Positions 8,875-9,222 of a DNA stretch of 11,240 nt are shown here, piece after piece. The stretch covers positions 1-11,240 of the IMG/VR virus record IMGVR_UViG_2537561823_000007; one strand, 5' to 3'. A program made the translations under genes and the position numbers. The stretch comes from a virus (taxonomy: Duplodnaviria; Heunggongvirae; Uroviricota; Caudoviricetes). Below the pieces are notes generated by a model. That model searched no databases. It was not told the DNA's origin and saw only the letters and a list, made by a program, of their open reading frames with translations. Positions within the stretch are counted from its first letter, which is position 1; every line of letters begins with the position of its first letter.

Positions 8875-8903
8875 TTGCAACATTTATTTCGTAACGTTAT
8901 TAT
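8875..8903 (+). promoter_or_regulatory. Near-consensus sigma-70 promoter driving the tRNA cluster
   Basis: -35 TTGCAA at 8875..8880, 17-bp spacer, -10 TATTAT at 8898..8903, about 9 bp upstream of the first tRNA. Confidence 0.65.
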
Positions 8904-8912
8904 CCTGCGCCC

Positions 8913-8988
8913 GGCCCTTTAGCTCAGTGGTGAGAGCGAGCGACTCATAATCGCCAGGTCGCTGGTTCAAATCCAGCAAGGGCCACCA
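8913..8988 (+). tRNA. tRNA with anticodon CAT, Ile2 (lysidine)-type, ileX/ileZ-like
   Basis: Manual cloverleaf: acceptor GGCCCTT/AAGGGCC, D-arm GCTC/GAGC, anticodon loop CTCATAA, T-arm GCTGG-TTCAAAT-CCAGC, discriminator A, encoded CCA. Very close to recalled E. coli ileX. Confidence 0.85.
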
Positions 8989-8989
8989 A

Positions 8990-9066
8990 CCGTCACCAGT
9001 TCATCAGGAAAGAGCGTCAACCCTTTAAGTTGAGTGTGCGAGGTTCGAGTCCCCGGTGGCGGTCCA
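8990..9066 (+). tRNA. Atypical tRNA, anticodon TTT (Lys-like) with C at position 33 and 9-nt D-loop
   Basis: Acceptor CCGTCAC/GTGGCGG (one G-U pair), anticodon stem TCAAC/GTTGA, loop CCTTTAA, T-loop TTCGAGT with one A-C mismatch in the T-stem, encoded CCA. Assignment tentative. Confidence 0.55.
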
Positions 9067-9068
9067 GT

Positions 9069-9144
9069 GCCGACTTAGCTCAGTAGGTAGAGCAACTGAC
9101 TTGTAATCAGTAGGTCACCAGTTCGATTCCGGTAGTCGGCACCA
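9069..9144 (+). tRNA. tRNA-Thr (anticodon TGT)
   Basis: Acceptor GCCGACT/AGTCGGC, anticodon stem ACTGA/TCAGT, loop CTTGTAA, T-loop TTCGATT, discriminator A, encoded CCA. Confidence 0.8.
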
Positions 9145-9147
9145 TAT

Positions 9148-9222
9148 GCGGGTATCGTATAATGGCTATTACCTCAGCCTTCCAAGCTGATGATGCGGGT
9201 TCGATTCCCGCTACCCGCTCCA
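9148..9222 (+). tRNA. tRNA-Gly (anticodon TCC), glyT-like
   Basis: Acceptor GCGGGTA/TACCCGC, anticodon stem TCAGC/GCTGA, loop CTTCCAA, T-arm GCGGG-TTCGATT-CCCGC, encoded CCA. Nearly identical to recalled E. coli glyT. Confidence 0.85.

Follow-up and report, generated by a model that had tools for sequence, protein, structure and literature searches.

For the tRNA genes that lie next to the late antiterminator gene Q in lambdoid and Shiga toxin (Stx) phages, the long-standing explanation is that they supply decoders for rare codons. A four-gene array located between Q and the lysis genes in an 11,240-nucleotide stretch of a Caudoviricetes genome (positions 1 to 11,240 of IMG/VR virus record IMGVR_UViG_2537561823_000007; hereafter, the window) raises the question of where such genes come from, what they would do for the phage, and whether its second, atypical member still works as a tRNA. 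Our analysis indicates that the slot is an actively remodelled cassette, shaped by capture of host tRNA genes, by partner swaps behind the same Q and by anticodon switches (slot 2, UCG, UCU or UUU; slot 3, UGU to UUU; slot 1, CAU to CGU). Our best explanation, to which we give about an even chance as a whole, is that the locus is an autonomous, promoter-driven tRNA operon, a 'moron' in the late region of a lambda-like Escherichia coli prophage.

ARAGORN found four tRNA genes in the window and no more, each on the + strand (tRNA1 to tRNA4; Table 1), and reading of the sequence bore out the anticodons CAT, TTT, TGT and TCC, the encoded CCA that ends each gene and the 1- to 3-nt spacers described in the initial annotation (8989, 9067-9068 and 9145-9147). 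The near-consensus promoter proposed there was also recovered by a promoter scan. Taken alone, this consensus match is weak evidence, and the scan reported five promoter-like sites in the window versus 1.9 in shuffled sequences. In 28 upstream haplotypes from other prophages, the -35 TTG, the -10 TATTAT and the 17-bp spacing are kept, while the spacer and the upstream DNA have strongly diverged, and a three-way alignment of the window with the Stx2a phage Stx2a_F349 and a PPompW phage shows the promoter element unchanged. Between the -10 hexamer and tRNA1, which starts 10 nt past it, lies the 9-nt stretch CCTGCGCCC (8904-8912), which resembles the G+C-rich discriminator of stable-RNA promoters. 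The array would probably be transcribed in lysogens from this sigma-70, stable-RNA-like promoter of its own and probably also, after induction, within the Q-antiterminated late transcript; RNase P and 3' trimming would then free the four tightly packed tRNAs.

By homology the array is a chimera, its front half being the ileZ-argN module of Stx phages and its back half a piece of the host thrU-tyrU-glyT-thrT operon without tyrU. The initial annotation had matched its position to that of ileZ-argN-argO in lambdoid Stx phages; indeed, the homology of the promoter, tRNA1 and tRNA2 to the ileZ-argN region is genuine, and the stretch that they span is approximately 90% identical to it. tRNA1 is 100% identical to ileZ (tRNA-Ile2) of Stx2a_F349, and because it is invariant in the three-way alignment we identify it as an ileZ-type tRNA-Ile2, predicted to decode AUA after lysidine modification, and not as a tRNA-Met; it is labelled tRNA-Ile by the Prokaryotic Genome Annotation Pipeline (PGAP). 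tRNA2 aligns as an argN-family tRNA whose anticodon has switched from UCG/UCU to UUU, from Arg to Lys. It differs from argN at 12 of 77 nt, six of these in the anticodon arm (loop CCUUUAA versus CUUCGAA), and it has kept the A51-C63 T-stem mismatch, U73 and the 9-nt D-loop of its ancestor. The mismatch, which the initial annotation had recorded while overlooking its descent from argN as well as C8 and U73, is thus not a new defect.

In the back half, tRNA3 is an exact copy of K-12 thrU, the ACA decoder (100% over 9068-9145), and tRNA4 is a copy of host glyT, the decoder of GGA and GGG, whose two mismatches to K-12 glyT amount to a compensatory C6-G67 to U6-A67 change. The host-identical C6/G67 was found in 75 of 85 arrays and the U6/A67 of the window in the other 10; a stem-disrupting tRNA4 allele occurs in 15% of arrays. 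Around the junction, thrU has kept the one base that follows it and glyT the two that precede it, and tyrU and its spacers were therefore precisely deleted between tRNA3 and tRNA4.

The array is thus, as far as sequence comparison goes, a variant of the known ileZ-argN-argO cassette of Stx-converting lambdoid phages (Stx2a_F349, 933W-type), with which it shares the slot 3' of Q and 5' of the late and lysis genes. Slot 2 carries UUU with C33 here, whereas argN carries UCG with U33; argO (UCU) is absent, its place being taken by the thrU and glyT copies, which accords with the initial remark that the tRNA complement differs; and no stx genes follow. A CAT-TTT-TCT array found elsewhere represents an intermediate between the two types. 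With the host thrU-tyrU-glyT-thrT (tufB) operon the array shares thrU and glyT, with 1-2 flanking bases kept on each side, but tyrU and approximately 200 nt of spacer are gone, leaving thrU and glyT 3 nt apart, thrT and tufB are missing, and the promoter is that of the phage.

We then turned to the frequency of the array and its variants. Of 5,426 complete E. coli genomes, 599 contain at least 80% of it and 798 the tRNA2 family, with C33 in all copies examined; the Lys(UUU) C33 allele thus occurs in about one in seven of these genomes, and its weaker forms are omitted by genome annotation. The main allele (approximately 533 genomes, e.g. APEC O1) is annotated as tRNA-Lys, the window type (171 genomes) is left unannotated by PGAP, and a third form with a 1-nt D-stem deletion accounts for approximately 94 genomes. 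The array also occurs in the isolated phages vB_EcoM-606R7, vB_EcoS-689R5 and PhiR47_1. Among GTDB species representatives, the exact T-arm was found in E. coli and Shigella flexneri only, which gives no cross-genus depth. In 123 stretches that share this T-arm (IMG/VR loci and four reference copies), the complete CAT-TTT-TGT-TCC array was seen 94 times, CAT-TTT-TCT 13 times and CAT-TCG-TCT seven times. When 80 loci were anchored on Q (97-100% amino acid identity), the same three types were represented by 40, 11 and 19 loci, respectively, the last being ileZ-argN-argO, in addition to rarer forms. Various arrays thus stand behind a near-identical Q, and therefore the tRNA cassette has been exchanged behind one Q.

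Anticodon changes accompany this exchange. In slot 2 we found UCG (argN), UCU (21 genomes) and UUU (798 genomes). The UCU allele has the anticodon stem UCAAC/GUUGA of the Lys allele, together with U33, a T stem repaired to A-U and A73; in the anticodon arm it is separated from the Lys allele by U33C and C35U only, making it the closest relative of tRNA2 in that arm. In six complete genomes, an array with Arg(UCU) in slot 2 carries a thrU-derived UUU tRNA (G35U and A26G; PGAP tRNA-Lys), whose descent from thrU makes it a second and independent way of arriving at a prophage tRNA-Lys(UUU). A single locus (L182, 3401-3476) carries an ileZ-derived tRNA with the anticodon CGU in place of CAU (A35G). 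An additional 82-nt argN-like element lies approximately 650 nt downstream of the array in three loci (L168 and L176, 4361-4442; L178, 4362-4443); ARAGORN reports it as 'Val(aac)', and it looks like a degenerate paralogue, with intact acceptor and T arms but an expanded, scrambled anticodon region. A search of the window with the T-arm pattern (up to three mismatches) revealed no second argN-like relic. The suggestion that the array could be a common, well-described cluster held for its first half: the sequences are already public and partly annotated, and the array is a common phage tRNA operon, ordinary in kind, with one unusual member. As for the second half, no description of the array, its chimeric origin, the Arg-to-Lys switch or the fixed C33 was found in the literature searched, where searches for ileZ, argN and argO also returned nothing relevant.

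What, then, is unusual about tRNA2? All the oddities reported initially are present: C33 (position 9023) in place of U, the mismatch between A51 and C63 (9041/9053) and a D-loop of 9 nt, AUCAGGAAA, which retains G18-G19. To these are added C8 (8997) for U and a U73 discriminator (9063). The T-loop, UUCGAGU, conforms to UUCRANY, and the 3' end is UCCA. Both U33 and U8 of a canonical elongator are thus missing from the window copy, which represents a minority 'U4-C8-U11' allele that adds C8 and two G-U pairs; C8 is seen in this allele only, the main allele having U8. A cloverleaf with stems of 7, 4, 5 and 5 bp can be drawn, with one A-C mismatch and the two G-U pairs, and 94% of cells are paired across 15 tRNA2 alleles. 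Rejection of 8990-9066 by a covariance model, named initially as a point that would count against a tRNA, did not occur: searched alone, the region scored 31.3 bits (E = 3e-5) against the Rfam RF00005 gathering threshold of 29 bits, so that the model accepts it narrowly, although speed filters dropped it when the whole window was run. The main tRNA2 allele scored 44.4 bits and argN 43.0, while the PPompW allele fell below detection. The cloverleaf lies 2.7 kcal/mol above the minimum free energy (MFE) structure for the main allele and 7.0 for the window allele, as compared to 6.4 for argN, 4.5 for tRNA1 and 3.9 for tRNA3. Folding evidence is limited to these energy gaps; MFE shape and z-scores were set aside as not discriminating, since tRNA2 and the bona fide tRNA1 and tRNA3 all miss the cloverleaf by MFE.

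In all slot-2 UUU alleles examined, position 33 is C, position 32 varies (C, U or A), and loop positions 33-38, the anticodon and the T arm are invariant. A U33 version of the Lys allele was not found in 2.9 million IMG/VR contigs, and the sole IMG/VR match to a G30-C40 intermediate (locus L128) was rejected, being an unrelated tRNA-Lys of an A+T-rich phage with a normal loop. The anticodon U34-U35-U36 is that of tRNA-Lys(UUU). The discriminator identity element used by E. coli lysyl-tRNA synthetase is A73, and tRNA2 has instead the U73 inherited from argN. The determinants U36-A37-A38 of N6-threonylcarbamoyladenosine (t6A) at position 37 are in place, yet so is C33, an anti-determinant: with it, EcTsaBCDE no longer formed t6A37 on an E. 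coli tRNA in vitro (PMC8887486). A structural study showed no base-specific contact to U33 (PMC13276492). The papers that our literature search on U33 returned concern t6A, and none gives direct in vivo evidence on U33C for E. coli elongators. The initiator tRNA-Met of multicellular eukaryotes, the chief natural class of cytoplasmic C33 tRNAs known, shares C33 with tRNA2, and C33 affects the formation of t6A37 (PMC8887486), but this tRNA belongs to an unrelated lineage and has an initiator role. The E. coli t6A enzymes reject C33 in vitro.

Our best reading of tRNA2 is that of a weakly constrained, anticodon-switched Lys(UUU) tRNA; most likely it still serves, if inefficiently, as an additional tRNA-Lys(UUU), and it would be charged with lysine. 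Its body and anticodon arm are unlike those of host tRNA-Lys. We consider it somewhat more likely than not that the main allele functions in translation, and less likely for the window allele, a further weakened copy. In the acceptor stem, seven of seven one-sided changes keep pairing, and nine of 13 stem changes overall are pair-preserving (binomial p ~0.009 versus an expectation of one third). All pair-disrupting substitutions are singletons, the common disrupting change being the 1-nt D-stem deletion of PPompW-type alleles. Nucleotide diversity (pi) ranges from 0.001 to 0.012 in the four tRNAs, versus 0.093 at 4-fold sites of the adjacent Q; for tRNA2 it is 0.012, 8-fold below the Q sites and equal to tRNA3 and tRNA4. 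tRNA1 is the most conserved member of the array (pi 0.001-0.003), approximately 10 times more so than the other three, and therefore ileZ looks like the core selected gene, with the rest under looser constraint.

Several observations weigh against a working tRNA2. Non-homologous mosaic flanks occur, and in the largest flank-matched set the pi of tRNA2 is 0.021, as high as that of the downstream flank (0.015-0.021) and approximately three times that of tRNA3 and tRNA4. The flank-matched and Q 4-fold baselines conflict, and nucleotide diversity was thus discarded as a test of selection. Approximately one third of the genomic tRNA2 copies are structurally weakened alleles. Covariation is not significant, with 112 of 500 shuffles reaching the observed value in an underpowered set of 15 close alleles, from which only the direction of substitutions is informative. 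Finally, C33, U73, the A-C pair in the T stem and the C8 of the window should each lower function.

These departures from the functional consensus could alternatively mark tRNA2 as a decaying relic of argN that has lost its Arg anticodon as well as its part in translation and persists only because it is wedged, with 1-2-nt spacers, between selected tRNAs, while the rest of the array works, a possibility that we view as real though unlikely. It is in line with the 31.3 bits of the window allele, the undetected PPompW allele and the omission of the window allele by PGAP, with tRNA2 being the most variable array member, at the diversity of the downstream flank, and with the existence of alleles carrying the D-stem deletion or a 7-nt deletion in the anticodon arm. 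The rare anticodon mutants, thrU-derived UUU in six genomes and ileZ-derived CGU at one locus, likewise suggest that constraint on the array is leaky. A relic, however, would not be expected to match argN as a tRNA by covariance score and folding energy, as the main allele does in about two thirds of the copies, nor to keep the T arm and positions 33-38 invariant while its common stem substitutions all preserve pairing. The 8-fold lower diversity relative to neighbouring 4-fold sites argues in the same direction, as do the lack of a clean tRNA2 deletion among approximately 140 arrays and the presence of the UUU allele in 798 genomes versus 21 for its nearest relative, slot-2 UCU. A functional tRNA2 would represent a natural switch of tRNA identity and a bacterial tRNA that works although it lacks U33; a non-functional one would provide a well-dated case of tRNA gene decay within a selected operon.

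As to the role of the array, its main job would be to provide more decoders for the A-ending codons AUA (tRNA1), ACA (tRNA3) and GGA (tRNA4) in the A+T-richer genes of the prophage. In prophage early genes, AUA, ACA, GGA and AAA occur 14.6, 16.7, 12.7 and 46.9 times per 1000 codons, respectively, as compared to 3.1, 10.8, 10.0 and 33.9 in 13 flanking host genes and 3.6, 13.8, 11.1 and 31.5 in the late structural genes. Supply of minor decoders of the ileX-type, thrU and glyT kinds is thus a reasonable rationale, and the same ACA bias and codon-usage argument have been put forward for the Q-linked tRNA-Thr(UGU) of SfI (PMC3636060). A correspondence between the anticodons and the codons of the late genes, raised by the initial annotation, was seen for ACA, which is above the host value, and not for AUA, GGA and AAA, which are close to host-like. 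This speaks against codon supply in the genes that are co-transcribed with the array, and the supply therefore fits the early genes better; the host sample, in addition, comprises 13 genes only. AAA and AAG are codons in common use, and the six tRNA-Lys genes of E. coli K-12 make this tRNA multi-copy; an extra tRNA-Lys(UUU) is therefore poorly explained by codon supply.

It is here that a role in defence comes in: tRNA2 might be a nuclease-insensitive spare tRNA-Lys(UUU) that would sustain AAA and AAG decoding when PrrC/RloC, AriB of the PARIS system or P2-OLD destroys host tRNA-Lys. A lambdoid lineage would then have turned an argN-family Arg tRNA into a Lys(UUU) spare surviving PrrC, PARIS and OLD-type nucleases, with C33 preventing t6A37; we regard the role as a coherent hypothesis, but both it and this history as improbable. 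Host tRNA-Lys(UUU) is a prime target of AriB and PrrC; AriB cleaves it, and then Thr(UGU) and Asn(GUU), at U36AAUC/A41, and cleavage is abolished by U39A and impaired by A41C and U16C, while PrrC is stated to need cyclic t6A (ct6A) at position 37 (PMC12409363). For P2-OLD, the classic system against lambda, tRNA-ThrU is the first target, Lys(UUU) and others are cut more slowly, as secondary targets, and paired CNG motifs at 28-30 and 40-42 plus A37 are required (PMC12445682). tRNA2 has G39-U40-U41 and C16 where the host has U39-C40-A41 and U16, and CAA/UUG in place of the CNG motifs, which argN possesses (CAG/CUG); its C33, which blocks t6A37 by E. coli TsaBCDE in vitro (PMC8887486), might also withhold the ct6A37 needed by PrrC (PMC12409363). 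At the level of motifs, it thus combines a targeted anticodon with substituted recognition and cleavage positions, as nuclease-resistant phage tRNAs do. Most phage tRNA-Lys(UUU) tested in a published tRNA library screen rescue AriB toxicity, and the PARIS-neutralising tRNA-Lys(UUU) of T5 (PMC11464382, PMC12409363) is, like tRNA2, a phage-borne UUU tRNA with C16 and substitutions at AriB positions 39-41. T5, however, is virulent and has approximately 24 tRNAs, and its tRNA has a Lys-type body and U33, whereas tRNA2 is Arg-derived, has C33, belongs to a temperate lambdoid phage and is known from sequence. The lambdoid phages SfI, Sf6, ST64T, PS3 and 21 carry tRNA-Asn(GUU) together with tRNA-Thr(UGU) in the same slot 3' of Q, the former lacking a codon rationale (PMC3636060); Thr(UGU) is common to that pair and our array, but the tRNA set and origin differ (as compared by description), and together with Lys(UUU) the pair makes up the AriB target set.

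Against such a spare stands that it is argued wholly from sequence motifs. The CNG-free stem is also present in the slot-2 Arg(UCU) allele; it is thus older than the Lys switch and did not arise by selection in that context. tRNA3 is a host-identical thrU, cut by both nucleases, and over-expressed host ThrU gives little or no rescue of P2-OLD toxicity (PMC12445682); the whole array would therefore not be an anti-OLD or anti-PARIS kit, and dosage protection against P2-OLD by the thrU copy was ruled out on the same grounds. By motif, tRNA4 and argN would also be OLD substrates, and the independent UUU allele derived from thrU, in which U33, the CNG motifs and UAAUCA are all retained, would be sensitive. 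A tRNA-Lys with C33 and without t6A37 may, moreover, decode too poorly to serve, and tRNA2 is weakly constrained. If a spare it is, prophages of approximately 15% of E. coli genomes would come equipped with a reserve tRNA-Lys(UUU); no earlier counter-defence tRNA of this kind would be known from a lambda-like prophage, and C33 would here serve naturally to evade a modification-dependent nuclease. A further proposal, by which tRNA2 and tRNA4 adjust the programmed -1 frameshift behind the tail-assembly chaperone GT, appears to us very improbable. Lambda G/GT is produced by frameshifting at a slippery site. Its heptamer, G GGA AAG, is decoded by exactly tRNA-Gly(UCC) and tRNA-Lys(UUU), and the prophage that matches the window, in E. 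coli strain 504239, carries G and T genes of lambda type, in which the end of G reads GCG GGA AAG TG (L127, 5470-5480). We nevertheless take the match for a coincidence, picked out post hoc when several other anticodon pairings could have looked 'meaningful'; both tRNAs are already available from the host, and arrays with Lys and without Gly (CAT-TTT-TCT) are common. Codon supply, with tRNA2 as an inefficient extra member, stays our preferred account of the benefit that the phage may draw from the array.

Table 1. Coordinates of the features discussed; positions are those of the window unless another sequence is named.
Feature	Position	Strand	Evidence or occurrence
tRNA1, anticodon CAT (CAU)	8913-8988	+	ARAGORN; Rfam RF00005, 72.5 bits
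tRNA2, anticodon TTT (UUU; 9024-9026)	8990-9066	+	ARAGORN; Rfam RF00005, 31.3 bits searched alone
tRNA3, anticodon TGT (UGU)	9069-9144	+	ARAGORN; Rfam RF00005, 73.8 bits
tRNA4, anticodon TCC (UCC)	9148-9222	+	ARAGORN; Rfam RF00005, 65.6 bits
tRNA-operon promoter, TTGCAA-17-TATTAT	8875-8903	+	promoter scan, 9/12 matches
Slot-2 UCU allele	L171 and L180, 3483-3559; L186, 3468-3544		21 complete genomes
thrU-derived UUU tRNA	L186, 3547-3622 (IMG/VR); e.g. NZ_CP025842.1, 1040162-1040237
Late antiterminator gene Q	8007-8702	+	Pfam PF06323 Phage_antiter_Q, E = 8.6e-92
Candidate late promoter pR', TTGCAA-17-TATATT, overlapping the end of Q	8686-8714	+	scan, 9/12 matches; pR' by position relative to Q and terminator
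Strong bidirectional intrinsic terminator, AAAACCCGC-CCACAA-GCGGGTTTTTTT, candidate tR' by position only	8766-8795	.	scan listing on - strand; + T-run read directly
Three intrinsic terminators between array and holin gene	9497-9516, 9540-9557, 9649-9664	+	terminator scan
RmrT toxin	4449-5090	+	PADLOC, E = 7e-93
RmrA antitoxin (helix-turn-helix and M78 peptidase)	5101-6222	+	E = 8e-201

By its gene content, the window is a lambdoid prophage. The array starts 210 nt downstream of the Q stop codon, and Q carries the label 'bacteriophage antitermination protein Q' in the PGAP annotation of the identical region of NZ_CP025859.1. Pfam searches revealed RusA and DUF968; downstream of the array they revealed two holins and an M15 endolysin and, further upstream in the window, a CI-type repressor, a ParE-family toxin and Hok. 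Positions 4154-11240 match, at 99.99% identity, a lambda-like prophage integrated at ompW in E. coli strain 504239, in which PGAP calls tRNA-Ile, tRNA-Thr and tRNA-Gly and leaves tRNA2 unannotated. The early region (1-4153) is not collinear with that prophage and comes from another lambdoid background; since collinearity is limited to 4154-11240, the genome is therefore a mosaic.

The bidirectional terminator (Table 1) sits between the candidate pR' and the tRNA promoter. The terminator scan of the window returned seven sites, as compared to 1.6 expected, and the cluster at 9497-9664 is where transcripts from the tRNA promoter would likely end in the absence of Q. In the interval from the array to the holin gene, we also observed a promoter-like site (TTAAGA-18-TATAAT, 9290-9319, 10/12 matches) and a small open reading frame (9341-9601) surrounded by terminator-like hairpins, of which one lies at 9320-9341 and the others coincide with the three terminators at 9497-9516, 9540-9557 and 9649-9664; this reading frame had no match in Pfam, PHROG or PADLOC.

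Other elements of the window deserve mention. A RosmerTA-type anti-phage pair (4449-6222, + strand) lies approximately 2.7 kb upstream of the array; a link between the two was weighed and set aside, no tRNA-directed activity being described for RmrT toxins in the literature examined. Adjoining toxin modules occupy 3570-4323 and comprise a ParE/RelE-family toxin (3809-4096, PF05016), preceded by a small open reading frame (3570-3809) that is likely its antitoxin, and a Hok/Gef toxin (4168-4323, PF01848). A full-length DicF antisense small RNA is encoded at 1507-1558 on the - strand (Rfam, 76.7 bits), as in Qin/Kim-type prophages, and in Stx2a_F349 the small RNA STnc100 lies directly 3' of stxB (L002, 4697-4908; Rfam, 158.5 bits).

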